A stretch of 64,000 bases of DNA, taken from Yuukianura sp. NJ FZ-2021 (Eukaryota). This document shows, piece after piece, positions 12,465 to 61,992 of the stretch. Location of the stretch: the NCBI GenBank assembly GCA_046563655.1, contig CM102285.1:1240001-1304000 (forward strand), read 5' to 3'. Position numbers and translations under genes: made by a program. Below the pieces are notes generated by a model. It ran no database searches and was not told where the DNA came from. It was given only the letters and a program-made list of their open reading frames with translations. The stretch's first letter is position 1; every line of letters begins with the position of its first letter.

Positions 12465-12558
12465 AAATGCGAAATCGTTGTCCAGAGTTTTTTTTTAAGT
12501 TCATTTCAAGTAATAAAATCGCTCTTGGTTTTGACCTAACTCCGCTCAAAGTCGCCAT

Positions 12559-19808: not shown

Positions 19809-19815
19809 GTAAGCC

Positions 19816-19875
19816 CCGAACTTCTTTTGCCTTTGAGTTTATATGCCATGGCGACCTTGAGAGGTTCACCACGTT
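19816..19875 (+). promoter_or_regulatory. Putative RNA docking site, copy 2
   Basis: Reverse complement aacgtggtgaacctctcaaggtcgccatggcatataaactcaaaggcaaaagaagttcgg matches motifs upstream of most cassettes. Confidence 0.88.
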
Positions 19876-20352
19876 AAAACAGAATCTTTAATTTTTTAAA
19901 CAACTTTTTTAACTTTCCAAAAAGATCACAACTGATCTGACATTTGATAACGCTCATATCTCATTTACTCAAATTGAATAACGTTTTCTGTCAACAAGCT
20001 TTCTTTGTTACATACGGAAAAGACGCGGAGCTTTTTTTATATCCATTTTCTGTGAAATCAGAGTTTTAGACGGTCAGTTTCTCCTTTTGACAGTTTCGAG
20101 TTTGTCACTGAGCTTTTTAGTACTTTAGGCAGAGGAGTTTAGTTCAGGGCCGGAAATTTTTAAAAGTTTTTCCAGAAGAAAAAAGTTTTTCAGAAAAAAA
20201 CTTCTGTTTTTAAAACTAGTTCAGTGAAATCTAGTGAAAAGAGAGACACGACATGAATGCAAGAGAGGAGCCCTTTGAAATTGTGAAGAATTTTTTGAAA
20301 AATTTTCAAGTCGTGGTTAGTGGAGCCTTTGGAACATGAAAAAACGAAGATG

Positions 20353-20375
20353 CTTAAGTTCGCCATGGCATTCAA
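20353..20375 (+). promoter_or_regulatory. Proximal selector-like element
   Basis: Identical to 7476-7498 within otherwise unalignable intron sequence. Confidence 0.7.
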
Positions 20376-21371
20376 CCGAGCCCTTTTCCACTACTACTGC
20401 TGTGCTGTGCAATCGGTTCAAGTGCTCCCCCCTTCTTCGCTTTGTCTTGTTAAAACTATGTTGAAAATCATGCAATTTCCCGCTCTCACGAACATTGAAA
20501 TCGTGTTTGGGGAATGAACAATGACGGAGGAAAAAAGAGTGGGAAAAAGTTTGAACAACGAAGTTTAAAAAATTTATTCAAAAAGCCCCTCTGTACTTCC
20601 TCTTTTTAAAAAGTAGAAAGGGCTCGGACCCAACTTTTGTTCAACTGTTCAAAAACAGAACAGAAAAATTAAAAATGTGTGTTGGCAAATGTCCAACTAA
20701 CAAAAAACATGAGGCATACCAAATGTGGACATGTATGGTTTCATGCCAGACTGTTCAAACGAACAATGAGATACACATGCCGTAGCATTAGCATTATCTA
20801 TACCTAAGTTGGGCATGGGCGGGGAATTTGAATTTTTTTGGAAATTCATAAGAAGCGGGAAGTGCAAAACTTGCATACTATAGGTTTAGAATTAACTGCG
20901 ATTTTTTAAAGAATGTCTGTCCAACTAGTTAAAGTTGAACTGAACTGCATACTATCTTTTCAATTTTGAAAGATTTTCAAAAATTTTAATTTTGAAAAAT
21001 TTGAAGACTTTTACTAAAGTTTAGTATTTACTACACTGACTGTCAATGGATTGATTTTCTCGGTGAGAATTGCGATTGTAGCAAATTGAATGTCGAATTA
21101 CTTTCTTGCTTTGCTCTAACCTGTTTGCTGTTTTCGAAATTGAAGGTTTGGTTTGTTTTTGAAAAAGTGGAAATTTTTGAAAAGTGAAATGAGTGACTGT
21201 GTCACTCGGATTGTAAAATGCGGAATTCAGTTTGGAATGTTAAAGTTAAAAATGAGTTGGTGGTCCATGGTCTTCTTGGGAAAGTATAAACTCAATGGCG
21301 ATGGAGTTTTGCAAAATGTTTTTTTTTTTTTTGAAAAGCGGGTAATTTGAGTTTTGTTTTTGTCTTTGTAG

Positions 21372-21595
21372 TAATTCGAGTGAATGGGCAGAGGAGGTTT
21401 AGTTGTAGAAGATGTAAGAAGAGTTACGCTCAAAACGTATCACTCACGCGACATATTCGTTACCAATGTGGTGTTGAAATTGGAGAATTTGAATGTCGAT
21501 ACTGTGGCAGAAGAAGTAAATTACTTCAGAATTTGAGGTCACATGAAATGACATGCAGAAAGAAATTGGCCAAGTTGAAAAAACTAAAAAATTAA
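21372..21595 (+). CDS. Alternative terminal exon, CCHC+C2HC fingers
   Basis: CRRC..HIRYQC..CRYC..HEMTC. Selector tataaactcaatggcga at 21285-21301. Confidence 0.85.
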
Positions 21596-21912
21596 GAAAA
21601 AAAATTTCTACTAAAAAAATTGTAAATTTTAGTTTGAATTTTAGTCTTAAATTTTACTTGTTTTTTGTACACTTTGTTCAAAGTTGGTCCTAATGTTTTT
21701 GAATTAAGAAATTAAAAATTCGTAGATTAAAATTTTTTAGTGTTAATTGGAAAATGTGGGATTCAGATTGCAAAATGTGGCTTTTGAAGACGTGTGAGTA
21801 AAGTCAAGGTCGCTCTGATTGATTGGCATGTTTGCTTGGAGGCAAAAAGTTTCAAAATTTCTTTTGAGATTCAAAATTTTCGTGTTCAGGGTTTTGGTTT
21901 TTGAGTTATGAC

Positions 21913-22419
21913 CAGGGCTGCAAAAAATATTTACTAAAAACCCCCAAAATATTTATTGAAATATTTACTGAAAAACGGCACTATATTTAAGAACATATTT
22001 ACTAACCAAGTCAATATTTACAAAATTTTACCTTGAAATCACATAAATTCAGTTGGCATTTGTTAATTTGTCACTGATGCGTTCAACGCAACCGGGATTT
22101 TGAGTATTGCTAACCTGAACTATATTTTCTTTCTTGGGTTTAGAAGTCAACAGGATATCGAATTTGATTAAGGATGGCTTTGCTGTGTCTTTATCGGTTG
22201 AAAAAGCAAAAATTGTTAACCGAGGATGACAAATGTCATCAATATACCGAAATTTTGGTCCGAAAAACACTGAAACGGCTAAAAATTTACAAAAAATATT
22301 GATTATTTTTCAAAAACAGTCAGAAATTTAGAAAAATATTTATATTTTTTAAAATGGCAGAATATTTTTTTTAAATATAAAAATATTTAATATTTAAGAA
22401 AATATTTTTTGCAGCCCTG
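21913..22419. mobile_element. hAT-like MITE
   Basis: TIR CAGGGCTGCAAAAAATAT; 8-bp TSD gttatgac (21905-21912, 22420-22427). Confidence 0.9.
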
Positions 22420-22452
22420 GTTATGACGGAAGGTTTTAATTTTTTGCCGTAG

Positions 22453-22724
22453 ATATTTGGATTTTGACTGATTCGGAATGGGAGCCTTATACAAGGACGC
22501 TGTCAATGGGTGCAGGGCGGCTAAAGTGTCGTTACTGCGGAATGATGTTTAGGCAGGGAAGTGCGTTGTGTCGACATCGCAAGTACAGTTGTCCTAACTT
22601 GCAATATGAATTGACAACTTGTGACTTATGCGGAGCTCGTATGAAACCGAGGTCACTCATGGACCATAAAAGAGCCACTTGTAGAGTTGTCAGGGCCAGA
22701 CATAATGCAGAACCTGGAAGTTAG
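22453..22724 (+). CDS. Alternative terminal exon, double finger
   Basis: CRYC..HRKYSC..CDLC..HKRATC. Selector tcaaggtcgc at ~21804. Confidence 0.85.
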
Positions 22725-23018
22725 AAGTTACCTTAGGAATTTTGCAATTTACTGAAGTATAGGTTGGATTTTTTGGTTTTGAGTAATTGTGAGATTTATG
22801 TATAATTAAACTGTAATTTTGGTGAAAACAAACATTAGTTTTGAAATAGTTTTTTAATGTTTTGAAAACCGGATATTTTTAGTTGAGTTTGTTTGATATT
22901 GAGAGAACTTCACAAGGTCGCTATTCCGTTGAATTTGAGTCAGAAATTTCTCTTTTTATGTCTGTTTGTTTAGTTTTTTTTTGTTAACTATTTTTGAATC
23001 GAAATTTTGAAATTTTAG

Positions 23019-23263
23019 TTTTGGATTGGAATAATTGCGGTGGTTCGGGGATTGGGGAGAGGATTTTTCTGAAACCTGTTTTGAAAATGACCGGAAGTAG
23101 TGGAACAGCGAAGCCACATAAGTGCTTATGTGGATACGGATCAGAACGAAACTATAATCTGAAGAGACACCAAGAAATTTGTCAGCAGTATCGCTATTTG
23201 AGAGCGAAATCTGAGCATACGCATAGCGCGAATCAGGAGAAATCTCGACGAGGGCGCCACTGA
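23019..23263 (+). CDS. Alternative terminal exon, single C2HC finger
   Basis: CLC..LKRHQEIC. Selector gaacttcacaaggtcgctat at 22905-22924. AATAAA at 23406. Confidence 0.75.
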
Positions 23264-23726
23264 ATTTGTTTCATACGATTTTGCTATAAATGTTAAGTAT
23301 AAGTGGTACAATTTTTGCTAATTTCAGGAATTTCCGACGCTGATTAATTGCATTTAAAAGGCATATATGTATGCTAAGGAACTTAATTAATATATACTGT
23401 AGCATAATAAATTTATTGAATAACCTAACCTAAGTTTATATTGAAGAGAGACTTTTTTCTCGAAATTTGAATTATAAACTGTCTTTCGGACTTCAAGTTT
23501 TGGATTCTTGGTTGAAGAAATTTCGCAAATTGGGTCGAGTAGGTTTAAATTGAAGTACAATTTTGTGAGTAGTAAATTTCTATGTTGGCGGTGAATTTTG
23601 AGTTTGAAGTGTGTTTGGGCTGTTTGGCGTTGGTGTGTTTGGTGGCAATTTCAAGAGCCGCTATGGCATATTGTTGGACTGTGCAAATATTTTTTTGCAA
23701 TGTTGCAAATGATTGATTGTTGTAAG

Positions 23727-23947
23727 GGTTTTTGGGACGTGGGTTGTGCTGTCCGAGATGTGGAAAACGGTATCATGCCCAGCAGAAGTCAGCATTTGAC
23801 AAGCACATCATGTACGACTGTGCAAAAATTCCGCCAAAATTTAAATGTGGACTTTGCGATTATGTGGCACGAAGAACGACTTACTTTGAAGCTCATTTCA
23901 AACGGTATCATCCGCAGAACGAAGTTTCGTATTTCAAATACTACTAA
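23727..23947 (+). CDS. Alternative terminal exon, YDC-type CCHC+C2H2
   Basis: CPRC..HIMYDC..CGLC..HFKRYH. Selector cgctatggcatat at ~23659. Confidence 0.85.
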
Positions 23948-24223
23948 TTGGTGGATTTGGAATTTTTATTACGTAGTTTAAGAAAAAATGTAGGTGCTAA
24001 CGATATGTGCAGAACCGTCTAAATCGATGGATTTTGAATTTTTTAGATGATTTTAAAACCGATAGAAAATATTTCATTTTAGCACGTCAATTACGCAAAT
24101 TTTCCGTTTTCCAAAAGCGGCAATTTTTTTTAAAGTACAAAACCATTTCTCAACACGCCATGGTGTATAATAAACCGAAATTTGGAAAATTTCTTAGTGA
24201 AACGTAGGTTTTTTTTTTCTTAG

Positions 24224-24411
24224 GAAAGTTGAAATGTACGCGTTGTGGAAAACGGTACTCGGCTGAGCAGAAGTCAGCTTTTGCGAATCACGTAACTTAC
24301 GATTGTCCGTTCGTTGAGCCAAAGTACAAATGCATCAAGTGCAAATACTTGTCCAGAAGGAAGAAACCGCTCATGCAGCATTTGGCAAAGTTCCATAAGG
24401 ACATTTTTTGA
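24224..24411 (+). CDS. Alternative terminal exon, YDC-type
   Basis: CTRC..HVTYDC..CIKC..HLAKFH. Selector ttctcaacacgccatggtgtata at ~24147. Confidence 0.85.
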
Positions 24412-24591
24412 AAATTTTGAAATTTGTAATTTTTGGAAATTTATATCTATGAGATTTGTTTTGGAACCTGTAGAAGGAGCCATGGCGTATACATGCTTTA
24501 TAGATTAGATTTTGCTTCTTTATGGAAATGTTAGGCTAATCCTGGTTTCTGATTGGTAAGTTAGGTTAATTCTCGTTTTTGATTGGCTTAG

Positions 24592-24785
24592 GCTGCGTAA
24601 CATGTGGCCTATGTGGAAAACGGTATTTGGCAAGAGAGAAGCGGGCAATTCGAAACCATTTTCTGTATGACTGTCGACAAATTGAACCGAAATTTAAGTG
24701 TGAGTTTTGCCCGTATTCGGCTAGGAGAAAGAAAGGACTGATGGTACATCATGCTCGATTTCATTCCAACAGTGTTCCAATATGA
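24592..24785 (+). CDS. Alternative terminal exon, YDC-type
   Basis: CGLC..HFLYDC..CEFC..HHARFH. Selector gccatggcgtata at 24479. Confidence 0.85.
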
Positions 24786-25077
24786 AACGTTTGAATTTGT
24801 GTAGTTTTTATATGGAATTTTGGCTTTAAAGATTACGTTAAATGAATGTGTTTTTAACATTTTAAACTATGCAAAAATAAATTTTACGAAAAGTAATTGC
24901 GATTTTGTCTGATCCTGGAACCAAAGGTGGTGCAATTCTATTTTTGTATTGGTTCTAAATGTGGTTGAATTTTTTAAATTTTTACAATGGTGAAGCCAAG
25001 GGTTTTTGAGGGATTTTTGAAAATTTGATTTTAACATTTGGTGTTCTTTTTTTCTCCATTTTTATTTTCTCGAATAG

Positions 25078-25265
25078 CCTCGGGCTATGCATGGCTTACA
25101 TGGCATGCACCACCGCCTTTTCGTCGTGTTTCGTTTGGTCAAGTTGTTGGCAAGAATTTTAAATGTAAGATATGTGGTCATGAGCAACCGGACTGACGTA
25201 GGCGCCGAGCACATGAAGATAGACATCGAATGGCGTTGCTGAAGAAAAAATTGGTGTCTAGGTAA
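25078..25265 (+). pseudogene. Decayed cassette
   Basis: FKCKICGHEQPD* has an in-frame TGA before HEDRH; the first finger is lost. Confidence 0.6.
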
Positions 25266-25490
25266 TTTCTGTGTAGGAAATGTCCATAGTTATATTTGGT
25301 GCACGTAGAACTGATAAAAGTTCACAGACACACAAGTGTAAGCGACTCCTTCAGTTAAATTAAATTTAGCGGTAAAATATTTTGTGTTGTAGTGTACTTT
25401 GCATTTAAAAAAAAATCAAAAAAAAAAAAAATCTTATTTCGGTAACTTTTGATGTGCGCCATGCCATGGAATTTTCATTTTATTTTAAAG

Positions 25491-25714
25491 CTTCTTGTTT
25501 TGTTTGTGCAATAGACGAAGCAGGATTACGCTGTAGATGGTCAAGGCGCGGAAATTTGTATCTAACTGATTCAAGTACTCGTCGAAGTCACGATTCTGCT
25601 GAGGTTTATCCGAAGCTTAAATGTAACATTTGTGGTCGTTGGGGATTTGCTGGTCGTCAACTCAGAAGACACTATTATTATCGCCATCCTGATGAATATA
25701 GAAGGAAATATTAG
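25491..25714 (+). CDS. Alternative terminal exon, degenerate first finger plus C2H2
   Basis: CNIC..HYYYRH. Selector gccatgg at ~25463. Acceptor uncertain (25491 or 25515). Confidence 0.65.
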
Positions 25715-26012
25715 TGTTGAGGTAATCTTTGTGTAGGGAATGAGATATTTTAAAAGTTTTGTACCAAATTTGAGATTTCTGAGCTAGAACAATATTGTAC
25801 ACACTCACTTACGACTTTCTTTGTGTTTGTACTGGTTAAGTTGAATAAAAGTTTGGAAAAGATTGTTCTAAAGTTTCCCCGACAGATATTGTTTATGTTG
25901 CAACTTTTCAAGTGAGCCATGGTGTACGAAGTACAAAGTGTATCATTGGGATATTTGATTTCGAGTTTATATTGGTTTTAATTGCCGGTTTTTTTTCCTT
26001 TTTTTTTATTAG

Positions 26013-26218
26013 ACTTGTGCTGTACATTATGTGGAAAGTGTTATCCACTACGTAAGAAAGATTCGTATAACCACCATGTTCTTTACGATTGTCGAAAACT
26101 TGATCCGAGGTTCAAGTGCGACGTATGTGGTCATGTGACACGAAGAGGTTGTGCACTCAAAAAGCACTACCTAAGTCATCATCCGATAGAGTATAGAAAA
26201 AAATATTTTTATGTCTAG
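26013..26218 (+). CDS. Alternative terminal exon, YDC-type
   Basis: CTLC..HVLYDC..CDVC..HYLSHH. Selector tcaagtgagccatggtgta at ~25908. Confidence 0.85.
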
Positions 26219-27017
26219 GAAATCGTCTTTTAACTTTTGTACTTACGCCTACAGCCTAGAAGGATATTTGTATATTGCTGGCCGAACATCTTGTTGTAAT
26301 GTTGAAAAACTTGCAATAAATTTTAGACTTTTTAACAACCCGGAGAAAATTTTAACTTTTTCGTCCGGTTGAGTTTAAAGACAAATATTTCTGGTGAGGT
26401 AATCTGTTGAGGCAATTGCTGTTGAGGGAATCCTGTTGTTAAATGTTTGTCCACGTCTTGTACAAAATGGTTGTGTACTTAAACTCTGGGTTATTTTATG
26501 TGAGGCAAAAGAAATTTTTTAAACAATTCGGTTTTTTTTTCGACACTTCATAAAGAAATTTTTTTAAACTTTTTTTGTGGTACTTTTCAGTGTATTTGGG
26601 TGATTTTAAATCGGGTTTTGGAAGTTGTGACGATGGTTTCTGTTATCATGTAACGCACGAGTCAAATGCACGGTTTAGGTTAGGTTGACCGTGTGAAAAA
26701 ACAACTGTTTGAGTGCAAATTTTGTGCGTATAAGTCAACCTGTTACTTTAATCTTCAACAACATCATAAGACGCTACATGAGGGGTTTCCATTTGAGTAA
26801 AATAAGGTAGTTTTTGAAAAAATTTGGTTAGGTTTTCAAAACCTAATGTTATGGTGTTGTTTTTTTCGTTTAGAGTCTTTCTGTGTGCAATTTTTGTTGA
26901 TCTCAACAATAACATTGTTGAGGCGCCATGGCTTGTAAGCTCTGTGAAAAGCTGAAGTTTTTGGTCGAAATAAATTTGGTGTTTAATTCTTTTTTCTGTA
27001 TTTTGAAACATTTGTAG

Positions 27018-27226
27018 AGGAACTTCTAAATGGTAAATACGTCTGTAGAAGATGTGGCAAACGGTTTGCTCATCACCAAGGAGCTACGTATTTCTCACAT
27101 ACGAATTATGACTGTTCGAAAATTGAACCAAAATTTGAGTGCGAATTCTGTGGCTTCAAGACAAGACGCCAATATAATCTCAAATCACATGTCGCGAGAC
27201 TTCATGGAGGATTTCCGATTCAGTAA
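27018..27226 (+). CDS. Alternative terminal exon, YDC-type
   Basis: CRRC..HTNYDC..CEFC..HVARLH. Selector gaggcgccatggcttgtaagctc at ~26920. Confidence 0.85.
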
Positions 27227-27410
27227 CATAGGAGCAGATTTTAAATTTTTGAAGTTTTTCTACTAATTTTTGTTTGTAAAGTTCGGACCTTGTTTTGAAA
27301 AAAAATTCTCTTCTCTTAATTTTGTAAGGCGCCATGGCTAGTAAGCTCTTTCTCGTTTTAAATAACGTTTCTGGTGTAATTTTTTGTCGTTTTTTTTTAA
27401 ACGTTTGTAG

Positions 27411-27607
27411 TGAAAAATTTGTATTGCCCATACTGTCCTAGGGCGTTTCCGCGCCACCGAAGGTCAGCGTGGAGGAAACACCGAAATTTTGACTGTTTAA
27501 ATATTCCGCCAAGGTATCCATGTAAATTTTGCACCTACAAATCCAGACGTCTTTACAATCTGCAAACACATCACGCGAGACGCCATCCGGGCTTAGACTT
27601 TGAATGA
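27411..27607 (+). CDS. Alternative terminal exon, YDC-type
   Basis: CPYC..HRNFDC..CKFC..HHARRH. Selector aaggcgccatggc at ~27326. Confidence 0.85.
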
Positions 27608-27741
27608 ATTAAATTGGCGCCAACAAATTTTTAATGTTTTTTATAAGTTCCGTTGATTAAGTTATTGAGGAAGCCATGGCGTATAAATAATAAATTTTGA
27701 AAGTTTTTCGGTTTTTAAAAATTTGGAATTTTGTGTTTCAG

Positions 27742-27977
27742 TTGTCAATAAGTGTAACCTTTGTGGGAAATGTTTCTATGCATATCAGAGGTCAGCTATC
27801 AAGAGTCACAGGTTGTATGATTGTTTGAAAATGCAGCCACAATTTAAATGTCGTTATTGCAACTATAGCGCGAGACGGAAAACTGGACTTCAAAAACATC
27901 ATGTTCGACGGCATCCGACTTTCAAATTTGTTTTTGAACAACTTCAAAAACCTAAGTGTGATATCGAAGAAATTTAA
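27742..27977 (+). CDS. Alternative terminal exon, YDC-type
   Basis: CNLC..HRLYDC..CRYC..HHVRRH. Selector gccatggcgtataaa at 27673-27687. Confidence 0.85.
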
Positions 27978-28145
27978 TTTGTAACAATTTTTATGAATTC
28001 GTTCCGAATTTTGCCCTATTTCAGTATTTTTTTAAAACTTGTAAACTGCTGAAGGAAGCCGTGGTGTATAAAATTTTCATAAAAGAAAGTGAAATTTGTA
28101 GTTTCAAGTTTGGAGAACTTGGTTTTCTTTTGTTGTGTGTTTCAG

Positions 28146-28396
28146 CTTTCTTCAAATCTTGTCATCTCTGTGGCAAAGGTTTTCTGCGTCGTCAGAGTTC
28201 GACGTATTCTAATCATATGTTGTACGACTGTTTAAGTATTGCACCGCAGTATAAATGTCCATACTGTGACTTTGCTGCAAGACGTAACTGTGGACTCACG
28301 AGGCATCATGTTAGGGTACACCCTGATTTGCAGTTTGTTTACAGAAAACGTAGAAATGCTGTTCCTACTTTAGAAGATTTTCCTCCTGACTACTAA
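28146..28396 (+). CDS. Alternative terminal exon, YDC-type
   Basis: CHLC..HMLYDC..CPYC..HHVRVH. Selector gccgtggtgtataaa at ~28058. Confidence 0.85.
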
Positions 28397-28689
28397 TTTA
28401 TTTTCTTGTTTTTTCAAAATTTTGATTCCAAATTGTTCCTTTTGGTTTGGATTTTTATATGTTTTAAAATTTCTTAAGGCGCCATGGTTTGAAATTCTTA
28501 ACGTTTGAAAGTAAAGCGGTCGAACTTTTTAGAGTGGAAATTTAACCTGCGTGTAATATATTTCTTTTAAATCAATGCATACATGTGCCATGTGCCATGC
28601 CAACAAATTGGAAAAAGGGCGCCATGGTATATACTAATACTAAGGTGTTGGGAGAATCTAATGTTAATGTAAAGTGTTGGTGTTTTTAG

Positions 28690-28898
28690 CCAGTAGGGAG
28701 AGGATAAGGTGCTCGCGATGTGGAAAAGTGTATTTTCGGCATCAGAAAAGCGCCATGGCTTTGCACAATTGGTACGACTGCCCGGAATTGGCGCCAAGAT
28801 ACAAGTGTAAAATTTGTGGTACTCTGGCTAGGCGAATGGAGCGATTGAGAAAACATCATGAAAAATATCATCCAAACGTCCCATTTGAATCACGATGA
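28690..28898 (+). CDS. Alternative terminal exon, YDC-type
   Basis: CSRC..HNWYDC..CKIC..HHEKYH. Selectors cgccatggtatata at ~28620 and ttaaggcgccatggt at ~28474. Confidence 0.85.
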
Positions 28899-29031
28899 TA
28901 CTTTAAAAGTTGTCAAGTGATGATAGATTTGATAAAAATTCACGAATTTGAGAAATTTAGAAATTTTTTTCCGGTGTAGTTTTCAATAAAGTTTTCTTCT
29001 TTTTCGGGATATATGAATTTAAAACTTGAGT

Positions 29032-29070
29032 GCCATGGCATATAAATCAAAGCGGCAAAAAGAATCTCGG
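29032..29070 (+). promoter_or_regulatory. Longest selector seen (pairs with the 5' half of the docking site)
   Basis: gccatggcatataaatcaaagcggcaaaaagaatctcgg vs docking reverse complement gccatggcatataaactcaaaggcaaaagaagttcgg. Confidence 0.85.
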
Positions 29071-29148
29071 ATCTCGTTTTTGGGAAATTTTCCTCAAGTC
29101 AAAAAATTTGGTTTTGAAAACACGGGTGTGTCTTGTGCCTGTTTTTAG

Positions 29149-29360
29149 TATTCGTGTATTCATGCCCGCGTTGTGGCAAGTCATATCATCGGCGTCAAAG
29201 ACCAGCTTTTGAAAATCATGTTCGGTATGATTGTTTGAAAATTCCGCCAAAATTTCAGTGTGGTGAATGCGACTTTGTCGTCAGAAGGAATCACGCTCTC
29301 AAAGCCCATTATCTTAAGTTTCATCCAACCAAAAGTATTCCGCCTTTTGCATTCACTTGA
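29149..29360 (+). CDS. Alternative terminal exon, YDC-type
   Basis: CPRC..HVRYDC..CGEC..HYLKFH. Confidence 0.85.
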
Positions 29361-29769
29361 TTGAGTTAGCCTAATAGAGTTATCTTAACATCTAACATGG
29401 TTCAGGTTATGATTAAAGTTTAATTTTTAGCATGGTGAGCTTAATAAACGATGGCAGTTTTTAAATCGACGTGAAACCACGAAAATGGGCTTTCGGATGT
29501 TGGAATTTCCAATTCCACAACAACATCGTTTTTTTTTTCGCGCTCAGGGCGCATCTTTGCCAGCTTTTTTCTGCTAATAGACATATTGAACAATTGAACA
29601 GAGTTTTGTTAATTTTTGGGATTTTTAAAATTGTGTTTGTGTTTTTGGGAAATAAAGTTATTTGGCTGTTATAGATTTTGTTGTGAAGGGAGAAGTGGAA
29701 GCCATGGCATATGAATTTTCTGTTTAAGAAATTGTAAATTTCGTAATGTTTGTGTCCGTTTGGGTGCAG

Positions 29770-29987
29770 GAGTGCAGTGCATCTATTGTGGAAAGAAGTA
29801 TCGAGCACGGACGGCAGCGTACCGCAGTAAAGCGCTTGAGAATCATATGACCTACGACTGTAAACTCATCCCGCCAAGATTTAAATGCGGACTATGTGGA
29901 TTCGTTGCTAGGAGAACAACTAGGTTTCATTATCATTTTCAAAAGTCTCATCCGCTGATGGTAGTTTCCTACAAAAAGTTGTATTGA
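29770..29987 (+). CDS. Alternative terminal exon, YDC-type
   Basis: CIYC..HMTYDC..CGLC..HFQKSH. Selector gccatggcatat at 29701-29712. Confidence 0.85.
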
Positions 29988-50300: not shown

Positions 50301-53300
50301 GAAAACGTTTTCGTTGTTCAATTCCAAACTGTACGAAGTTATATTCCTCTAGAGGAGCTTTGGTACGACATATGCGGTACGTTTTCTAAAAAAAAAATTC
50401 TAAAGAGAGTCTATGGATACAAACATAATTTTGTTTTTGTTTTTTGAAAAAAAAAGGTTTGATTTAAGAGTTACACAAAATTTTGAAAACTTTTGTGCTT
50501 ATTAGTTACGAATGCAACAAGGATCCACGGTTCAACTGTAACCTTTGCGGACATAAGACCAAACGGATGTCGGATTTGCGACGACATACGCAGATTTGTA
50601 AAGGTTATCCGTCTCGTCAATCCCTGGCGTTCAGACGATAAGTTAGTTTAAGTCAAGGTCAATGATAGGGTCAAGGTCATCTGGTTAAGGTCAAAGTAGT
50701 TTTAGTAAGGTCAAGGTCAAAAGTTCTGTTGGCTGGGTGATTATTAGCTTAAAGTGATCGTTTTGTTTTGAATTTTGAAAGTTGGAGTTATAAATAATAA
50801 ATATCGCTTTATTCATTCCATCTTAAACCTCTGTTTTTTTTAACTAAATTGTTAAAATTTTAATGTTTTTGAACTAACATGAGCAGGACCCGGAAACGTT
50901 CCTTGATTTTTTTAAATGTTCACTTCTGTGTTTTTCATTGTTGTTTAAACCATTTTATGGACTTTTACTGTATTTGTGGTGAACCTCTTAAAAAAACTTG
51001 GCGGAAATTCAAAGTTTAAAAAAATTTGGCCGGCCATTTTTGTCTTTAGGAAAACGATTTCGTTGTCCCAATCCCGATTGTCGTCGGAGTTATTCACGTA
51101 AGGGAAGTTTGGCTCGTCATTTGCGGTACGTTTTCAAAAAAAAAAAAGTATTGAAAACTTCATACATGATTTCTAAAATTTCTCTTTAGTTTGAAAAGTA
51201 ACTTTTTGAAATTCTTTGTGCTTACGCTTATTAGTCATGAATGCAACAAAGATCCACAGTTGAAGTGCAATCTTTGCGGACATATAACCCTGCGGAAGGC
51301 GGATTTGCAACGACATGCGCAGACTTGCAAAGGTGTTCCGTCACGCCAATCTCTTGCGAGACGACGACGGCTTGGACTAGATTAAGTTAAGGGCATGTTG
51401 AATACCTTTGGTCAGGTCAAGGTCAGTTTCGTAAGGTTGTTTAGATGAGGTAGTGTTTGTTAAGGAGTTCATTTGGATTAGTGTACAGTAATTTTTTTGT
51501 GTTCTTCGACGCCACCAATTTAAGACTATTTTATAATTGGAACAATTTTGCAACATTTCGTATGAAAAGCGTTGGTTTTTTAAATTGTAGAACTGTTTTG
51601 CGAACCACTCAAGGTTGCTTAGCTTTTTGTTTTGAAATGTTAACGATTTTGTAAAATCTGAACAGGAAAAAAAATGGAGAGATTGTACATATGCGTCTGT
51701 GGTCGTTTCTATGCAGTCAAAGCAAGTTTGACAAGACATATGAGGTGTGTTGAGTTAACAACAAAAACAATCCTCTTTTTTCGGTTTTTGAATTTTTTGA
51801 AAGAATAATAAAATCTGTGAAACCTTTTTTCAGATTCGAGTGTAACAAAGAACCGCAATTTCAGTGTCGTCGAGGTCACAAGTTTGCACACAAAAGCAGT
51901 TTGCGTAGACATTTACACATGTCACCCGAATGTATTTGAATTTGAACAAAGTCAAGTTTCGTAAAAGCTTCAAATTTTAAAATTTTTCGAAACATTAAAT
52001 TGGAAAGATTTTTAGCTTTGTTCTTTTCTCTGAAAGATTTACAAGTTTTGACGTGGTGAATTTCTCAGTCGTGGCAGAAGCAATTTTTTTTCTTTTATGT
52101 TTTTGAAATTTTGAAATTTAGGGAAATACTTTCCGTGTCCCAACCTCCTTTGTCCAAAAGTCTACACTCACAGAAGCAGTCTTTGGCGTCACGTCAAGTA
52201 AATACATATTTGCCCATACTAAATTTTTGTCTGCGACCTTACAGTAAACTAAACTTTGTTTTGTTTAGATTCGAATGTGGAAAACCTCCACAATTCCGTT
52301 GCCGCCTGGGTCACGTTTTCACTCGCAAGTCAAATTTGATGAAACACTTACAAACTTCGTTTGACTGCAATTAATGCAATTCCCAATCCCAATGCCGGGA
52401 TTTTTCAAGTTTTTCAAAACAAAATTTTTTTTCAAAATTCGGATTTAGTGTTTACCCAATGAGCAACTTTTGTCGTATTGTAACAATTCATCTGCCACCT
52501 TCAAGAATATAGTTGTAAATTAGAATATTTTTTTGTGTGTTTCATTTTTTTTGAACAAGGAGTAAAGTTGTTTTATTGTGTTGAATAATATTTCAATGGT
52601 GAACCACTCAAACTCGCCCAACTCATAGACAAAAAATTTGGTTTCTAAACCAAAGACTATAAAGACTATTTTTGGTTTTAAAACGTTTTGAATTTTTAAT
52701 TTTAGAAAAACGACCAAGGCATAAATGTCCGAAATGCCCAAGTTCTTATGCTACCAGAAAGTCCTGGAGACGTCATGTGAAGTACGCGATGTAAACTAAC
52801 CCAAAAAATTTACCGTAAAACTTCTACCAAGTCCCCGAGCTATATGTAAAGTCTCAGCCTTTAACATTCATAAGTGGCCAGCGTCTATGTCTGTTTCGAA
52901 ACTCGGGATTTGTTAAAAACTGGGAATTATTAGAAGTTTTACGGTATACTTTTTATTTGTTGCTGTTTAGTTTTTCGTAATATTTTTTGATTTGTAGACT
53001 CGAGTGTGGTCGGGAGGGAACATTTCAATGTGAATATTGTGATTTGAAATTCAAACGAAAGTACAGACTTCAGCGGCATCAAAGGCAGAAACATTGTACG
53101 CTTCATGCACCAGTTCATGTTGTTGTTCCAGAAAAGAAAGCAGTTTAAAGTTGTTTCAAAAGAACCTCGAAAAGACAACGAATTTGAAAAAAATTTCGTA
53201 ACCGAAACATAATTTCAATTCTACTATTTTGTACTTGAGGTTCTGTTTTCAGTCTTTTTCTGAAATTATAGTTTTATGTTTTGGATTTCTGTTTAATGTG

Positions 53301-53733: not shown

Positions 53734-54003
53734 ACAAGATTGCTAATTGAGTTGCTTCTTGAAAAAATTAACAGGACTCAAATTTCTGTTTTCAAAATAA
53801 ATTTTTCTGAAGTTTTTTTTTCGTTTTGTAACTCGCGATGATCAGTTTTTTGATGATTGGAGAAAAATTTGGAAAAGTTGAATTGACCTTTGAAGTGTAA
53901 TTAAAAAAGTAAACTGTTTGTGGTGACCTCTCATGCTTTTTTGAAAAGTTTTTCTACCTCTAATGAGTTTTGGAACTATGTTGAGCTATGTAATTTTGCA
54001 TAG

Positions 54004-54368
54004 GGACTGTGAGGCCTGTGCGCATGCGCAGTAGCTATGCAGAATCTCCAGAGTACTTGCCTACTGTTTTAGATGGAAGATTCTTTACTCCTTTGCCGTC
54101 AGTTCCATTTGTAGGAAATCTCACCGATAGACCAGCAATCAAACGCAGAGCAATCTGTCTCTCCTGTGGAAAGATGATCTGTGGGGTCATGACCTCCAAT
54201 TTTATTACTCATTTGAAGGTAAGGGCACCACACTTAATTAACTCAACTCGTTTAAGAACTGATTATGTTGATGAAGTAACTGTTGAACTTTTTTAGCGAG
54301 TGCACCAGGCAGCTTACATCGAATACAAGGCTCACGCTCAGGCACAAAGAAGGTCTCTTCCAGTTTAA
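54004..54368 (+). CDS. Split cassette, BED-finger-like (54004-54218 + 54297-54368)
   Basis: RFF..AICLSCGKMI..TSNFITHLK|RVH with a phase-0 intron. Selector gtggtgacctctca at ~53920. Confidence 0.8.
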
Positions 54369-55044
54369 ATATTGTACTGAAATGTTCCTAAAGGTCAAAG
54401 GTCAACTAAGATTCCACTTTGGTTATGCTGCGGCGCAATAAGATAGTTTCATTTAGAATTTTTCATAGTTGCAACCGACGGCTTACTAATTTGAATTACG
54501 TAAACAGCAAACACGTAGGCAAACAACAACAAATACTAAAATCGGCATGTTTACTTAAGAACAAAAAGTATTCAAAGCTACATATCTCGACGTTATGGAA
54601 AACCGTGTGCAAGTAGTGTTTATGTATTTGGTGTGTACGTAATTGTAGAACTTGGTGGATCATGTTTGTGGATAATAAAAAATTGGTTTTTGGGGAAAAA
54701 AACTATAAAATTCAAATTACGTGGATCCGATTCGAAATCGAATGTTAGTTTTTGCAACAACTTGCGATCTTTTAAATTTTCAACCGTTTCAAATTTGAAG
54801 TTTCACAACATATTTTGTCAAAAATTGGAATTTTTGAAAAAGTTTTATCAACTAGCTAAGAAATTCAGTATGGATGATGGAGATAGTCTCAAATTATTTT
54901 GGAATCTTGCCTACTACATTTGTTCTTACCGTTTTCCTTTTCCATTGTGACTTTCTACCGATACCAAGCAGCACAGCCAGTAAATTGTTAATATTTGTAG
55001 TGATAATTAATACATTATGCTATTATAAATCTTTCTAACCATAG

Positions 55045-55325
55045 GATCAAAGCATCTGGAGTTTGTCAAAAGTTCTTGGGGCGGGAACTTGTTGATTTGG
55101 AAAGGCTTTATGTTTTCGAGAATTAAAGCGATTGGCGGTAGTCAGTACTGGAGATGCACTCGCTACAGAGATCGCCACTGCACTGCCAAGTGCATCACAC
55201 GTTTTGGCAAATTTAAGTCTGAATCTGGAGGGCACAATCATGAAGTAGAGCCAGAAGAAATTGAAAAGCGACGGAAGTTGAGTTTTTGGAGAGACAGTGT
55301 CCGAAATGAGGAAATTTTACCATAA
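55045..55325 (+). CDS. Alternative terminal exon, FLYWCH (mod(mdg4)-type)
   Basis: FVKSSWGGNLLIWKGFMF..YWRC..CTAKCIT..HNH. Confidence 0.85.
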
Positions 55326-55740: not shown

Positions 55741-57375
55741 AACTGAATTTGCGATACAATTGCACAACTTGTTGGCGAAGCTACTTGCACCACACAAGCC
55801 TCAATCGTCATCGAAAGTAAATCAAAACATGTTTCAATTTTAAGAAGTAATTCAAAAAATTTCAAATTCTGGAAATTTCAAAAATTGCCGTTTCGTTCTA
55901 GATATGAATGTGGAAAGGAGCCGAAATTTAGTTGTGAGCATTGTGGTAAAAGATTTCACCAGAAAAGTAACCTAGCACAGCATCTCGTCAACTGCAATAC
56001 CAAGAAAGCTAAACACCGAATAAACCAACACTAAAGAAGTTCAAATTTTTCATTTTGTTTGTAAAAAGTTTCAAAATGTTTTCTTTTTGAATTTTTTTTA
56101 AACATAGGTCTTTGAGTTTATCAATTTTGCTGAGAGCTGCTAATTTCTTTCACTCTTTTTTCGTTTTTGAATAAAATATGTTCAATACTGTGAAGTTGCC
56201 GGTGGTAACTAGGCTGAATTGAAAAAAAAAATCACTTCAGTTTTTAAAATTTTCGTTGTTCAAAAACCTGAAAAAAATTTTCCATTTTGAAATTGAACGT
56301 GGAGAATCTCTCGAGGTTGCATTGGAAAGAAATTGTTTTTCTCAACAGTTTTTTTTAGAAATTCATTTGTTTAATTTAGTGGATTACGACGACGGCCGTC
56401 ATAAATGTCCAAATTGTTGGAGAACTTATAAGCACAGGAAACATCTCCAGCGTCACGTAAAGTATAGCATCCATATTAAATTCAAAAAAAAAAATTAAAT
56501 TTCTTAAAAATTTAGGGATTTTTGACTTTTGTATAATAGATATGATTGTGGAAAAGAACCTCAATTCATGTGCGTAGAATGTCATCATAGATTTCGTCGA
56601 AACGACCAACTCGAAAAACATCTTCTTAAAATGCACGGTTACATATTGTAAACCGACTTTACGTCCACTTTTTTAAGTGAAAATATTTTGAAAAAAAAAT
56701 TTGCTCCAAAAATGTTCCGGAGCTTTCTGAACCGGTTATACAAAATGTTAATTTGAAGCGGTGAACCTTTGAATAAAATTCGAAACAGTTTTCTGTTTAA
56801 GTGTTTTTCTTTTGTAAAAGTTTTACATTCCGGAAATTTCTTAGGTAATTTCATATCTAAATTTCCCCCATGTATCAAGAAGTTTTTAAAATTTCGAAAG
56901 TGGAGCCACATTTTCATGTTTTTTTTGTGGATTACGTTGGCTCAAAGCTGTTGATGTATTTCAAATCATAAATTCACTTTAAGTTTCAAAAATTTTTCGA
57001 AAAGTATTTCATTTTGAATTGGAACGTGAAGAATCTCTCAAGGTTACAATGGAAAGAAACTATTTTGCTGTGGAGTGTTTCTTTAAAATTTATTTAATTT
57101 AGTGGATTACGACGGTCGTTATAAATGTCCAAAGTGTTGGCGAAGTTATCAGCACAAGAGAAACCTTCATCGTCACTTAAAGTATAACATCCATATCAAA
57201 TTCAAAAAATTTCTTCTTTGAAATTTCTTTAAAATTTGTGAAATGTTGACTTTTGTATTATAGGGATGAATGTGGAAAGGAACCTCAATTTGTGTGTATC
57301 GAATGTCATCATAGATTTCGTCAAAACAACCAACTCAGAAAACATATTATAAAAATGCACGGTTACTTGTTGTGA
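55741..57375 (+). CDS. Three lola-like split cassettes: 55741-56034, 56380-56651, 57103-57375
   Basis: CxxCWRxYxH..L.RH.K|x(E/D)CGKEP.F.C..C..H. Selectors at ~55666, 56296-56320 and ~57023. A gutted cassette remnant lies at ~56758-56950. Confidence 0.85.
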
Positions 57376-58292
57376 ATCAACTTAAAGTAAGAAACGTCCA
57401 ACTTTTTTATGTATATAAATTTTTGAAGAAAAAAAATTGCTCTAAAATGTTTCGGAGCCTTCTGAACCGATTATACAAAATTTTAATTTGAAGTGTGGTG
57501 AACCTGTCAATAAAATTTAGAACTGTATTCTATTAGTGTTTTTCTTTGTAAAAAGTTTTACATTACGGAAATTTATTAGGTAAAAGGTACGCATGCCCAA
57601 CATGCTCCAGAACGTATGGTACTAAGGGCGCTCACAGCAGACATATCAAGTATGTACGCATGTAAATTTCCGTCATGTATTCAGAATTCTTTAAAATTTC
57701 AAAATTTGGAACATATTTTGATGTTTCTTTCTTGAATTAGATATGAATGTCAGCAGGAACCAAAATTTGTTTGTGAAACTTGCGGTTACAGAGCCAAGCG
57801 AAGTGATTTGCTGCTCAAACATTTCAGATACTTGTTGTGAATCAACTTAAAGAAGAAACGTCCAACTTTTTTATGTATATAAATTTTTGGGAAAAAAAAT
57901 TGCTCTAAAATGTTTCAGAGCCTTTTGGACCACCGATACAAAATTTTAATTTAGAGTGTGGTGAACCTGTCAATAAAATTTAGAACTGTATTCTATTAGT
58001 GTTTTTCTTTGTAAAAAAGTTTTACATTACGGAAATTTATTAGGTAAAAGGTACGCATGCCCAACATGCTCCAGAACGTATGGTACTAAGGGCGCTCACA
58101 GCAGACATATCAAGTATGTACGCATGTAAATTTCCGTCATGTATTCAGAATTTTTTAAAATTTCAAAATTTGGAACATATTTTGATGTTTCTTTCTTGAA
58201 TTAGATATGAATGTCAGCAGGAACCAAAATTTGTTTGTGAAACTTGCGGTTACAGAGCCAAGCGAAGTGATTTGCTGCTCAAACATTTCAGA
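57364..58292 (+). repeat. Very recent ~465-bp tandem duplication (57364-57828 / 57829-58292)
   Basis: Near-identical units, each containing a selector and a cassette. Confidence 0.92.
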
Positions 58293-59533
58293 AATTCTAA
58301 AAAAGGATGCGGACTTACTTTCTAGTGGCGAAAAATCAAACTATCAACCTAACTATTCAACTAAACTATCGTAAATGCTTCGTATAGATATTTACCATGG
58401 CTGTTCAAAATTCTAATTCTGTTGGAGACTTGTTTTTAAAAAATTTTTAAATTTGGACGTAATCTTGACAATGTCTGAGGAAAACTTTGAACTTCCAATA
58501 AATTTTAAGTAAAAATTCATTTAGTTGTGTGAACCTTTCAATCTCCTCTTTGATTGATATGATCAGAGCTTAAACGTTGGTTGTTATATAAATATTTTTG
58601 AATCGTTAACTGTTAAATTGGTTGTTCAAATTTGTTTAGATGGGAGATACCCATGTGCAACATGTGGAAGATCTTATGGCGCTTTGCAAAATTTGAGGAG
58701 ACATATTCAGTAAATGATAGACACGAGTTTTCATTTTTTTTTCAAAATTTTTTCATTCAATTTTTTTCAATTAATTTTTACTTTACTTTGTTTTTGTTGC
58801 ATTAGGTATGAATGTCAAGTGGAACCGAAATTTGTTTGTAAAACTTGCGGTGGCAGATACAAGCGAAACGATGCGCTCCTCAGGCATTTTAGAGTTTCCA
58901 AACATCGGTGTTGACATGGCCAAGCTACCACAATTTCACAGATAATTTTCTGAATCGATTACTTTAACGTTTAAGATTTCATGCGATTACTTTGTTGGTG
59001 GTATCCAATAAAATTGAACTCTATTGCCTGTTAAACTGGATTGTAAGGTTGCTAGGTTAGGCGGGAGTCTGAACCGATTAGCAATTTTGCACTCACTTCA
59101 GTAATAGATTGCGTTCTTTTTAAAGAATTTTGCAACGGGGTTAGTCTTACTTGGGTGACTTGTTATCTTTAACCCCGATTGGCAATGCACAAACTTTTCC
59201 ACTTTTTGCCACACCGTTTTTTCTATTTTTGGTACTTTGGAATTATTTTAGGCAGGCAATACCAATGCCCCACATGCCCACGCGTTTATGCTCATGTGGA
59301 TTCGTGGAGAAGACATACCAAGTAATTACTTGTAATTTCAAGTTGCTTTTTCAAAATTTTTAAATCTCAAACAGGGTTATTAATTTTTTTTCCATAGGCA
59401 TGAGTGCCAGAAGGAACCCAAATTTGTGTGTCAATTTTGCGGCTCCAAATTCAAACGACGGGATAGTCTTCTTAAACACCGGAGATTACCAAATAGGTGT
59501 AGCCGCAAAGTCGATCCGCTGCAGTCTCTGTAA
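57580..59533 (+). CDS. Four lola-like split cassettes: 57580-57840, 58044-58325, 58640-58914, 59252-59533
   Basis: Y.C(P/A)TC.R.Y..RH..|(Y/H)ECQ.EPKFVC..C. Selectors gtggtgaacctgtca at ~57495 and ~57958, and gtgaacctttcaa at ~58529. Confidence 0.82.
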
Positions 59534-59860
59534 TTTAATTACAATTGAATAGCCTAACATTAGGTCAAACTAATCTTATCCTAACAATTGGTCCACAAAT
59601 TAATAAAAAGATTCAATTCGAATAACAACAATCGAATCGAAATAATCAAATCTACATAAATACAAGTAAAAAATACTAACTAAAATAAGGCAGCCTCAAT
59701 TTATGCTTATTTTTCCTTCGTCGTTTACGAAATTCACTTCATTCTGATTTGGTGAACCTCTCAAAACGTCTAACGTAATTCATGGCTCAAAAAATTGTTG
59801 TTGCATATTTGTTTTGTAGAATCAAATTCGGGTTGGTGTTTTTTTTTTCAACTTTCTTAG

Positions 59861-61992
59861 CAGGAAACATATACATGCAACTGGATGGGAAAACGTCTAC
59901 GATTCTACCCATCTTTGACGGTAGATATTTCACTCCTGTCGCACCGATTCGGTCTAACAAGCCAAATAGTACTGGATCCAAGATGTGGAAACGCAGAGGG
60001 CGTTGTCAGTCTTGTGGGAAAATTATTAAAGGGGTCATGACCTCCAACTTCTACATGCACTTGAAGGTAATGATCTCCTTACCACGCGGATTTTCTTAAA
60101 GCGAAACTACTTTAAGAATTTTTTTAAAAAATCGGCTTTTGACAGAGAATACATCCGGAGGCATATGAAATGTGCAACAGGGAGCGATGGAGAAGTCGGG
60201 GAATAGAGCTGGATTGAAAAAAAGGCGCAACAAATCTTCAACTTTGCCAAATGTTTTGTAGATTTTAAAAAAATTGAATCCTTTATTGAATCGATTTACT
60301 CTTGTTTACTATTGGTATTGTACTGAATCGACTCATTTTGTTCCTGTAATACCCAATACAGATTTTGAAGTAACTCGAAGTTTGTGGATTTGTACTATCG
60401 TTTGTACTTTCAAATTATAATGAACGTTTGAAATTGATGGTTGTGTCTTGTAATCTCATCTTGATTTTGTAAAAAGCAATTCAAAAATTATTGATTACGT
60501 TGGTGTAAATAAAAACTTTAGTGGAAATAGAAGAAAAATTAACCCGTTTTAGTTGTAATTTTCTATTTACACCTTCGCATACTAAAATCGGAATGATTTC
60601 GGAATTTTCATTTCAAATTTTTATGTTTTTGATGGTTTTATGGTGAACCTCTCATGGCTGATCGTTTTTGGAATTCTTAGAATTTTGGATTTCCTTGAAT
60701 TTTTTTGTTTTCGAATTTTTAGTTAGCGTACTTGGACCTAGAATTTTTAATTGGAAGTATTTCCAAGTGGTCGCAAGAACTGATGTTCATGTGCGTGGAT
60801 TTCGAGAGTTCAAGTACCAAGCAGTTTGCAGTGCTTGTGGAACTACAATCACTGCATACATGACTTCTAATTTTCTTCGTCACTTGAAGGTTTTTGTCTA
60901 CAAAAAAAAATCGCGTCATTTTTGTTTAAAAAAGTATTTGGAGAAGTTTTTAAACTGAAGTTGTGGTTGAAATTTTTAGAAAATGCATCCGGAGCTGTAC
61001 TTGGAGTACGAGTCTGAGAACAAAGGAATGAATTAACGTTGGACTTCTACTACGTTGGAAACGATTTTTTTTATGTTTCTCTATACATATTCAAAATCTT
61101 TTAAATAAAGTGGATCCAAAACAAAGCTTTTCAAATTTAAACGTACCTTGCGTTGCTGCGTCCCCCGCCTGCATGAAATTGTGAACCGAAAAGCACCACC
61201 TCTGCATGAAATCCTTGGTTGAACCGAGAATGTCGTACCGCTGCCGGATTTTTTTGGATTGCTTGTTTACATTTTTTTATGTCTTTTTTTTTGCAATAAT
61301 AGTACAATGTGGACTTGGGACACAGAAAGGACGAAATCGAATTTTGCAGGATCGGTTTTACAAAATCATTTCAGCGGTTCGTCAAACCACGTCAAGGAAT
61401 AATCGGGTCAAAGTTCAAGCAGAGTGTGTCAAATGTGGCTACCTGGTTTCATCCAATGTCACATCAAACTTCATCAGACACTACAAGGTAAGTTACATCA
61501 TGGCAGTGTTAGGTTTACATCATAATACGACTTACGGCGTTAGAGAATTAGATGCTGCAAATTAGAACTTACCATGATAATTGTTACGATAAGTATTTAA
61601 AACAGCGCCCTAAAAATGTTTGATTTCTTCAAGCTATAGTTTATCTATTTTCAGAATGTCATTTTTCCGCTGTTTTTTTTTTTCGTTTTCACTCCAAATC
61701 TTAGGAAAAACTTAAGCTTTTGGAAAGCACGTTCTACATAATGTCTGTACAGAATTTCAAAAACTTCTAATTTCTAGGTTAACAGTACATAACTCAACGA
61801 TTTTTTTTTCAAAGTTGAAATGTCATTACGAAAAAAAAAAGCAGGCAAAGCTGTAAAATTTGACAAAGTTAAATTAAGTTTTGTTGAAAATACTTTTTAT
61901 TTGCTTTGTTACAGAATCATCATCCGGACATTTATCAAGATTTTAGCAAAACCTCAACTAATCGCAGTAGGAAAAGATCCCACCAGCGATGA
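59861..61992 (+). CDS. Three BED-finger-like split cassettes: 59861-60217, 60723-61036, 61303-61992
   Basis: (R/K)(Y/F)(F/Y)..CxxCG..TSNFxxH(L/Y)K|xxHP. Selectors tggtgaacctctcaa at 59750-59764 and tggtgaacctctca at 60641-60654. Confidence 0.8.

Follow-up and report, generated by a model that had tools for sequence, protein, structure and literature searches.

The window analysed here is a stretch of 64,000 nucleotides (nt) from Yuukianura sp. NJ FZ-2021 (GenBank assembly GCA_046563655.1, contig CM102285.1, positions 1,240,001 to 1,304,000). Judged by its sequence, the locus is an arthropod lola-like gene of the Tramtrack group of BTB factors, with shared 5' exons and alternative DNA-binding 3' ends (cassettes). 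An element that begins at the donor of the last shared exon, here called the dock, is complementary to short sequences, here called selectors, upstream of most of these cassettes. A sequence-only reading had proposed that this arrangement is a docking-site/selector system of RNA pairing. Coordinates are window positions on the plus strand unless stated otherwise.

The constant region that precedes the main array (copy 2) spans 18439-19808. It contains a BTB exon at 18439-18622, more constant exons, and the last constant exon at 19689-19808. The BTB domain lies in an open reading frame (ORF) at 18349-18708 and scores 47 bits against Pfam. Its N-terminal motif, inspected by eye, is presumably of the Tramtrack type. 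The top protein matches of the constant region are insect "longitudinals lacking" (lola) proteins, which match the BTB part only, with 55-63% identity over 20-25% of the query; the protein collection searched thus includes no closely related sequence. Tramtrack-group BTB factors are described as arthropod-specific (PMC11426971). The GT..AG introns at 18623-18709 and 19590-19688 are backed by RNA contigs, which also cover 19689-19777 of the last constant exon. This RNA evidence consists of assembled contigs of three public runs with thin cover, compared with 18300-38299 only. The last constant exon stops one base into a codon, at 19808. It is followed by GTAAG, with the donor GT at 19809-19810.

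The BTB constant region occurs twice in tandem, at 5157-7079 and 17964-19881, and the sequence-only reading had assumed a single dock. The constant region of copy 1 (5633-7006) is 86.6-88.5% identical to that of copy 2. It is followed by a dock at 7007-7078 that is identical to 19809-19880 at 72/72 positions and that appears as a perfect complement match in the scan of the minus strand. Past the dock, only a 24-nt island and the first selector (7476-7503 versus 20353-20380) can still be aligned between the introns of the two copies. The island (19920-19943 and 7103-7126) is 96% identical between the copies amid the diverged intron and has a short inverted repeat inside. The copy-1 array (7476-12558) contains about seven selectors, at 7476, 8176, 9294, 9873, 10482, 11028, and 12542. 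Its zinc-finger cassettes lie at 7842, 8294, 9384, 10598, 11095, and other positions up to about 12.6 kilobases (kb).

The dock of copy 2 (19809-19880) is 72 nt long and begins with the GTAAG donor that follows the last constant exon. The 60-nt element originally described at 19816-19875, and its reverse complement, are exactly as quoted in the sequence-only reading. The core of the dock (19839-19874) is invariant in related loci and is used by most selectors. Selectors use the dock most heavily at 19840-19875, whereas no more than 4 of 46 reach into 19816-19834. Earlier cassettes pair chiefly with the dock centre (about 19835-19853), and later cassettes pair with 19848-19876. Footprints on the dock overlap by at least 4 nt in 755 of 1,035 selector pairs, so binding would be largely mutually exclusive. 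Fewer than four dock positions are common to the members of the other 280 pairs, for example 29701-29718 and 59745-59764. Six selectors (10487, 12550, 33915, 45145, 45754, and 46381) have in common a mismatch opposite C19856 of the dock. This mismatch may have been inherited from a common ancestor selector, or it may be the trace of a past change in the dock.

Downstream of copy 2 lies an array of about 67 alternative 3' cassettes (21252-61562); the sequence-only reading had put them at roughly 70. We curated 67 first exons between 21372 and 61303, and every acceptor is a prediction. All 67 cassettes and their selectors lie downstream of the donor and on the same strand. The array contains single-exon C2HC-C2H2 pairs at 23-31 kb and two-exon zinc-finger pairs from 33 kb on. 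It also contains FLYWCH cassettes (48207-48515 and 55029-55322) and BED-like cassettes (53994-54293 and 59779-61562), so that C2H2, FLYWCH, and BED-like domains lie within one array. Two FLYWCH cassettes and one zf-BED cassette score above the Pfam cut-off. Matches below the cut-off are a FLYWCH-type match at 49829-50125 and a BED-like match at 53994-54293. Between cassettes, at 49492-49680, lies a short tandem repeat with a 24-nt period that repeats CHLFCILN in one frame.

The first selector (20353-20375) has a score of 40 and pairs with dock positions 19843-19861. It is the best conserved selector and lies about 430-575 nt past the donor. In copy 2 the stretch from it to 21339 has no recognisable cassette. 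In copy 1 and in two related loci (L004 and L007, described below), a zinc-finger exon does not appear until about 270-400 nt further on. The selector of cassette 1 (21252-21313) pairs over dock 19812-19877 with an RNAduplex energy of -50.9 kcal/mol and an ungapped score of 40. Cassette 1 (21372-21592, acceptor predicted) encodes two C2H2 fingers and scores 30.5 bits against Pfam zf-C2H2. A strong selector at 21788-21853 (RNAduplex, -59.4) lies 600 nt before the next recognisable cassette (22453). That cassette is among those with no selector close by, and the selector upstream of it is conserved. The selector of cassette 29149 (29031-29070; RNAduplex, -53.9) pairs with the centre and 5' half of the dock. 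The upstream window of this cassette reaches -55.0, an energy reached by no shuffled dock.

Further along the array, the selector of cassette 46441 (46372-46392) has a score of 45, pairs with dock 19845-19865, and lies 49 nt from the acceptor. The selector of cassette 52122 (52045-52068) has a score of 52, pairs with dock 19857-19880, and lies 54 nt from the acceptor. Its pairing is unbroken over 24 nt, Watson-Crick or G-U throughout. The selector of cassette 56359 (56296-56320) has a score of 53 and lies 39 nt from the acceptor, and that of cassette 57103 (57023-57052) has a score of 46. The FLYWCH cassette at 48223-48515 (ORF 48207-48515; Pfam FLYWCH, 30.5 bits, above the cut-off) has a selector at 48116-48171 (RNAduplex, -50.2). 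The BED-like cassette 59861 has one at 59745-59764 with a score of 39 and an energy of -48.1, reached by no shuffled dock. The most distal selector (60641-60657; score, 37) precedes the BED cassette at 60723-60955 (ORF 60662-60955; Pfam zf-BED, 23.4 bits, above the cut-off). It lies 40.8 kb from the donor, slightly short of the 42-kb loop first envisaged. The selector examples quoted in the sequence-only reading were all found: 29032 onward, 29701 (12/12), 46372-46392, 48916 (12/12), 50228 and 50976 (13/13), 59750 (15/15), and 60641 (14/14). Its statement that cassettes of unrelated folds share the motif holds for FLYWCH cassette 48223 and for the BED-like cassettes 54103, 59861, and 60723. 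It does not hold for the best FLYWCH cassette (55029-55322; Pfam FLYWCH, 53.5 bits), which has no detectable selector (upstream energy, -20.9; p, 0.80).

The complementarity between dock and cassettes is real and far above chance. It was scored with an ungapped pairing scan (GC 3, AU 2, GU 1, mismatch -4; query, 19809-19880) and with RNAduplex. Shuffled docks served as controls, 100 (dinucleotide-shuffled) in the ungapped scan and 80 in the RNAduplex test. A first RNAduplex scan with 60-nt windows gave high background energies from long loops and G/T-rich composition, and we therefore relied on ungapped scores and shuffled-dock controls. At a score of at least 30, there are 54 sites on the plus strand, versus 5.2±2.8 (maximum, 12) for shuffled docks. 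The minus strand has four such sites, two of which are the docks themselves. At a score of at least 35, there are 29 sites on the plus strand, 2 on the minus strand, and 0.7±1.1 for shuffled docks. Exact 10-mers of the reverse complement of the element occur 60 times on the plus strand; 10-mers of the element itself occur nine times outside it. The constant region contains zero selector-like sites. Orientation is strict, with selector-sense sequence only at cassettes and its complement only at docks.

The RNAduplex comparison suggested by the sequence-only reading gave a clear result, with windows upstream of acceptors stronger than all three backgrounds. The dock (19809-19880) paired with the 200 nt upstream of the 67 acceptors at a median of -41.7 kcal/mol. 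The median was -26.7 for the same windows reverse-complemented (Mann-Whitney p, 5e-18) and -33.3 for 157 other plus-strand windows of the array (p, 5.6e-11). The mean was -40.9, versus -29.3±0.8 for the shuffled docks. The sequence-only reading had placed a selector at nearly every cassette. This stands for 51/67 cassettes, which reach p ≤ 0.05 against shuffled docks. The real energy was reached by zero shuffles at 38/67, and an ungapped selector scoring at least 30 was present at 39/67.

Selectors lie about 30-150 nt upstream of their acceptors. Collapsing left 44 selectors in the copy-2 array. For 34 of these, a phase-compatible AG with its pyrimidine tract and Cys-motif ORF follows within 20-200 nt (median, about 63 nt). 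Random positions gave 13.2±3.0 of 44 with such an acceptor (maximum, 24; 1,000 trials). The phase of the acceptor fits donor 19808 at 34/44 selectors, and two control phases gave 12/44 and 13/44. This phase match is indirect evidence that the cassettes join donor 19808, and the conservation of the GAAG|GTAAG exon end in related loci points the same way.

Related loci were retrieved from metagenome and assembly contigs with an exact 25-mer of the dock (19846-19870). Eight loci were found (L001-L008). A protein-pattern scan of metagenome contigs with the constant exon found no relative. All eight loci have the dock, the GAAG|GTAAG exon end, and a last constant exon that is homologous to that of the window and differs from it by synonymous-type changes. 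In an alignment of 10 docks, 34/35 core positions do not vary (the search itself imposed 25 of these and left 9 free), and the following T is present in 10/10. The 5' part of the dock is variable across loci and has indels. The invariant part coincides with the part used by the selectors.

Selectors are present in L007, L004, L002, L005, and L008. L007 contains 15 selectors scoring at least 30 in the 11.3 kb after its dock, with 0 on the other strand and 0.78±0.86 (maximum, 3) for 200 shuffles. Its third codon positions are identical to those of the window at 30/69 (43%). Its BTB exon is 78-80% identical to that of the window in DNA and about 93% identical in protein (by eye), and its cassette proteins are about 50% identical. 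Orthologues of cassette 1 in L004, L002, and L007 have 47-51% amino-acid identity. The introns of the window and of the related loci are unalignable except for dock and selector islands (BLAST; L004, L005, and L008). The first selector (20353-20375) matches L004 881-903 (95.7%), L005 832-857 (26/26), and L008 1200-1219 (20/20), and it has a counterpart at L007 3522-3537. Part of the strong selector downstream of cassette 1 (21794-21817) is kept at L004 1803-1826 (91.7%). In L002 the counterpart of this selector (21788-21853) lies about 55 nt before the orthologous cassette. L006 has zero cassettes upstream of its BTB exons.

A second conserved feature lies 3' of the dock. Two TAACG motifs at 19948-19983 belong to a conserved motif cluster. 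TAACG occurs 20 times in the 220 nt after the dock over nine loci, versus a background of 0.10-0.14 per 220 nt. At least one copy follows the dock in 8/9 loci, and the sites lie at 19948-19983, at 7070-7165, and 25-110 nt past the docks of L001-L008. The cluster may be a landing platform for proteins, or it may form a structure with the 3' end of the dock.

Inverted repeats of 2.6 kb with 90% identity (2297-4816 and 13172-15749) flank copy 1. Both arms have constant-like 3' exons, and in both the donor is followed at about 140 nt by a single two-exon zinc-finger cassette; neither has a dock. No BTB exon was seen in either arm. A minus-strand cassette (14421 to 13922) was considered as evidence of trans-splicing and rejected; it sits in this inverted partial paralogue, with constant-like exons of its own. 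The paralogue, dockless and with a single cassette near its donor, counts in favour of the docking/selector reading.

Other features of the window were also recorded. The minus strand encodes a 622-residue open frame (62134-63999) that runs off the window end, and a near-length protein search with it gave no homologue. GC skew on the plus strand is strongly positive (0.13-0.25) and AT skew is negative over 20000-46000, the proximal array. The skew is weaker from 46 kb and reversed beyond 62 kb. It is compatible with transcription-linked asymmetry. An Rfam scan of the whole window gave zero family matches at the gathering score.

We conclude that competing RNA pairing of the docking-site/selector kind probably selects the 3' cassette at this locus. 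The complementarity, its strand and position specificity, the phase match, and the deep conservation of dock and selectors are direct observations. That the duplex forms in vivo, drives cassette choice, and acts within one transcript is what we infer from them. The common 5' exons ending at donor 19808 would be spliced to one of about 67 cassettes. In the pre-mRNA the dock core (19839-19874) would pair with a single selector per molecule, since the dock segments covered by most selectors overlap. The duplex would place the acceptor of that cassette beside the common donor. By this proximity a cassette up to about 41 kb away could compete with nearer ones. The geometry speaks for action at the RNA level: selectors have one orientation at cassettes, their complement lies at the donors on the transcribed strand, and different selectors retain differing and sometimes non-overlapping parts.

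Several results weigh against this conclusion. No junction from donor 19808 to a cassette, nor any other cassette junction, was found in the RNA contigs (three runs, thin cover, 18300-38299 only). These contigs gave no usable cover of the cassettes, a lack that is uninformative in itself. Thirteen of the 67 cassettes, the best FLYWCH cassette included, have no detectable selector within 200-260 nt. Base composition gives a non-trivial background; the median is -33.3 kcal/mol for the other windows of the array, and the mean is -29.3 for shuffled docks on the upstream windows. Three of the 67 acceptors (23070, 43600, and 51700) were set behind orphan selectors. Zinc-finger exons were seen afterwards at 43600 and 51700, and a zinc-finger ORF lies at 22988-23260. 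The related loci were found through the dock 25-mer itself, and relatives with an altered dock are invisible to such a search.

Tests for an RNA-specific signature also gave null results that count on the same side. Changes that keep a G-U pair are not in excess. Single mismatches flanked by at least five Watson-Crick pairs per side comprise 5 G-U, 6 A-C, and 6 transversions (n=17). Flank rates per opportunity are 0.266 for G-U and 0.207 for A-C, versus 0.269 and 0.219 under random placement. The covariation in related loci that the sequence-only reading had looked to did not appear between the selectors and the variable part of the dock. The variable 5' part of a locus's own dock fits its own selectors no better than a foreign one does. 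The own dock was best for 2/4 cassette-1 selectors, 5/19 window tails, and 1/7 L007 tails. One anecdotal compensatory pair was seen, with T in the dock (19838) and A in the selector in the window and C and G in L004. Covariation is not expected where the dock core is invariant, so the null wobble and covariation tests leave the RNA-level claim unproven and not refuted. The docking/selector interpretation thus stands as to its anatomy, which is present and statistically solid; a junction from 19808, a G-U excess, and dock-selector covariation did not accompany it.

Two negative results from flies add to these points. For mod(mdg4), the text of PMC4387717 reports that BLASTN found no complementarity. 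That of PMC13490949 reports that RNAcofold found none either and that an engineered complement did not restore trans-splicing, which argued against pairing there.

The same pairing could act between molecules. A donor transcript from either copy would then be tethered to separately promoted cassette transcripts, and trans-splicing would follow. We regard this as a possible explanation on the unlikely side. It has precedents, since fly lola and mod(mdg4) isoforms are reported to be trans-spliced from independent cassette promoters (PMC4387717, PMC13490949, PMC11426971), and pairing-assisted trans-splicing is documented in spider-mite sDscam (PMC9258826). A dock identical at 72/72 positions on two diverged copies is expected if one selector pool serves both. 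Each cassette is expected to have its own stop and 3' end, which would make 40 kb of read-through costly. On the other hand, splicing in cis is possible throughout, because every one of the 67 cassettes lies with its selector downstream of the donor and on its strand. The sole minus-strand cassette belongs to the inverted partial paralogue, and the absence of cassettes upstream of the BTB exons in L006 also speaks against action in trans. Action in cis is rated more likely than action in trans.

Two further explanations dispense with pairing. The repeated element could be a protein-binding site, either in RNA or as orientation-dependent promoter DNA that loops to the inverted copy near the constant exons, with complementarity as a by-product. 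Such a site would accord with the lack of an RNA-specific signal in the wobble and covariation tests and with the TAACG cluster, in which protein-type motifs are kept beside the dock. In fly mod(mdg4), clusters of RNA-binding-protein motifs, and not pairing, are reported to drive the reaction (PMC13490949). We consider it improbable here. One motif cannot explain the 280 selector pairs that retain differing segments of the dock complement, nor would an RNA-binding protein read both a motif and its complement. The strict orientation of selector sense and complement is a further objection. The selectors could also be neutral relics that were copied with cassettes in tandem duplication and have no present function. 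Tandem duplications are evident, neighbouring cassette families share a selector type (dock centre at 23-31 kb, 3' part at 33-60 kb), and an origin of selectors by duplication is a published model (PMC6071210). Neutral relics would have decayed, whereas dock and selectors are kept between the two copies in the window. They also stay identical or complementary between loci with 43% third-position identity. Their survival as islands in otherwise unalignable introns is a strong argument against relics, which we hold to be very improbable.

The mechanism proposed for this locus has established counterparts elsewhere. Docking/selector pairing is described for Dscam1, for other mutually exclusive exons, for the 3' clusters of PGRP-LC, CG42235, and Pip (PMC6191721), and for trans-splicing of sDscam (PMC9258826). 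For Dscam1 exon 6 and for the three 3' clusters, experiments are described as having established it (PMC6191721). A full-text literature search, with supplements outside its reach, did not link such pairing to lola, mod(mdg4), or any BTB zinc-finger locus. Within that scope this agrees with the sequence-only reading, which knew of no description of the mechanism for a BTB zinc-finger locus of this size. The kind of mechanism is thus already established. As far as we searched, the gene family, the array size (41 kb with about 67 cassettes), the combination of domains, and the duplicated dock are new.

The dock of Dscam1 exon 6 is among the most conserved sequences of its locus. As in the window, one dock lies in the intron after a constant exon, a selector lies upstream of each variable exon, and selectors compete for overlapping parts of the dock. 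In Dscam1, which encodes a surface receptor, the variable exons are internal and mutually exclusive, whereas those in the window are terminal 3' cassettes, often of two exons, of a transcription factor. There is no downstream constant exon in the window, so no repressor is needed against double inclusion. The window also differs in having two docks on two gene copies. The Dscam1 exon 6 system is described in PMC3535345, PMC8791459, and PMC6191721.

The 3' clusters of PGRP-LC, CG42235, and Pip are closer in layout. In these, pairing is reported to decide which of several tandem 3' cassettes a common donor is spliced to, and it was validated by disruptive and compensatory mutations (PMC6191721). 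Their cassettes number 3, 5-7, and 10 and span no more than about 12 kb (PMC6191721), versus about 67 over 41 kb in the window. Two of the three are described as limited to Drosophila lineages (PMC6191721), whereas the system in the window is kept across near-saturated synonymous sites. The array in the window has several cassette domain types and is known from sequence alone.

The lola and mod(mdg4) genes of Drosophila resemble the locus in having a Tramtrack-group BTB constant region with many C-terminal zinc-finger (lola) or FLYWCH (mod(mdg4)) cassettes. In these genes, too, the last common intron contains conserved elements (PMC4387717, PMC13490949, PMC11426971). Fly trans-splicing is reported to rely on a U1-binding motif and redundant RNA-binding-protein motifs, whereas long complementarity is the dominant conserved feature here. 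C2H2 and FLYWCH cassettes lie in separate fly genes, lola and mod(mdg4), and here C2H2, FLYWCH, and BED-like cassettes share one array. Every cassette here is on the strand of the donor. How the common exons of fly lola and mod(mdg4) are joined to dozens of ends is called unclear (PMC11426971, PMC13490949). Intron pairing was proposed for trans-splicing in Bombyx by Shao et al. (2012), as related in PMC4387717. In the sDscam-beta genes of Tetranychus urticae, a chelicerate cluster, intronic complementary elements described in docking/selector terms unite a donor with acceptors (PMC9258826). Unlike the system proposed here, they join transcripts of different clusters in a cell-adhesion gene with alternative promoters (PMC9258826).

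A broader history can be sketched as a speculation to which we give only a small chance. The pairing could be the ancestral tether of trans-splicing of the lola and mod(mdg4) type, with the frozen dock of either copy joining separate cassette transcripts (C2H2, FLYWCH, or BED). Diptera would have swapped complementarity for U1 and protein motifs. The first selector (20353-20375) would be a default partner that closes the dock until it is displaced by a cassette transcript.

The locus has strong, deeply conserved complementarity in the same kind of gene in which flies showed none. If the pairing is functional, no docking/selector system at a 3' variable region would be larger: the published ones have at most 10 cassettes, versus about 67 here. 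The mechanism would then reach a transcription-factor family, beyond surface receptors and immune genes. One frozen intron element could organise the choice among unrelated DNA-binding domains. The locus would also offer a tractable way into the question of how pairing was lost in the evolution of the fly loci.

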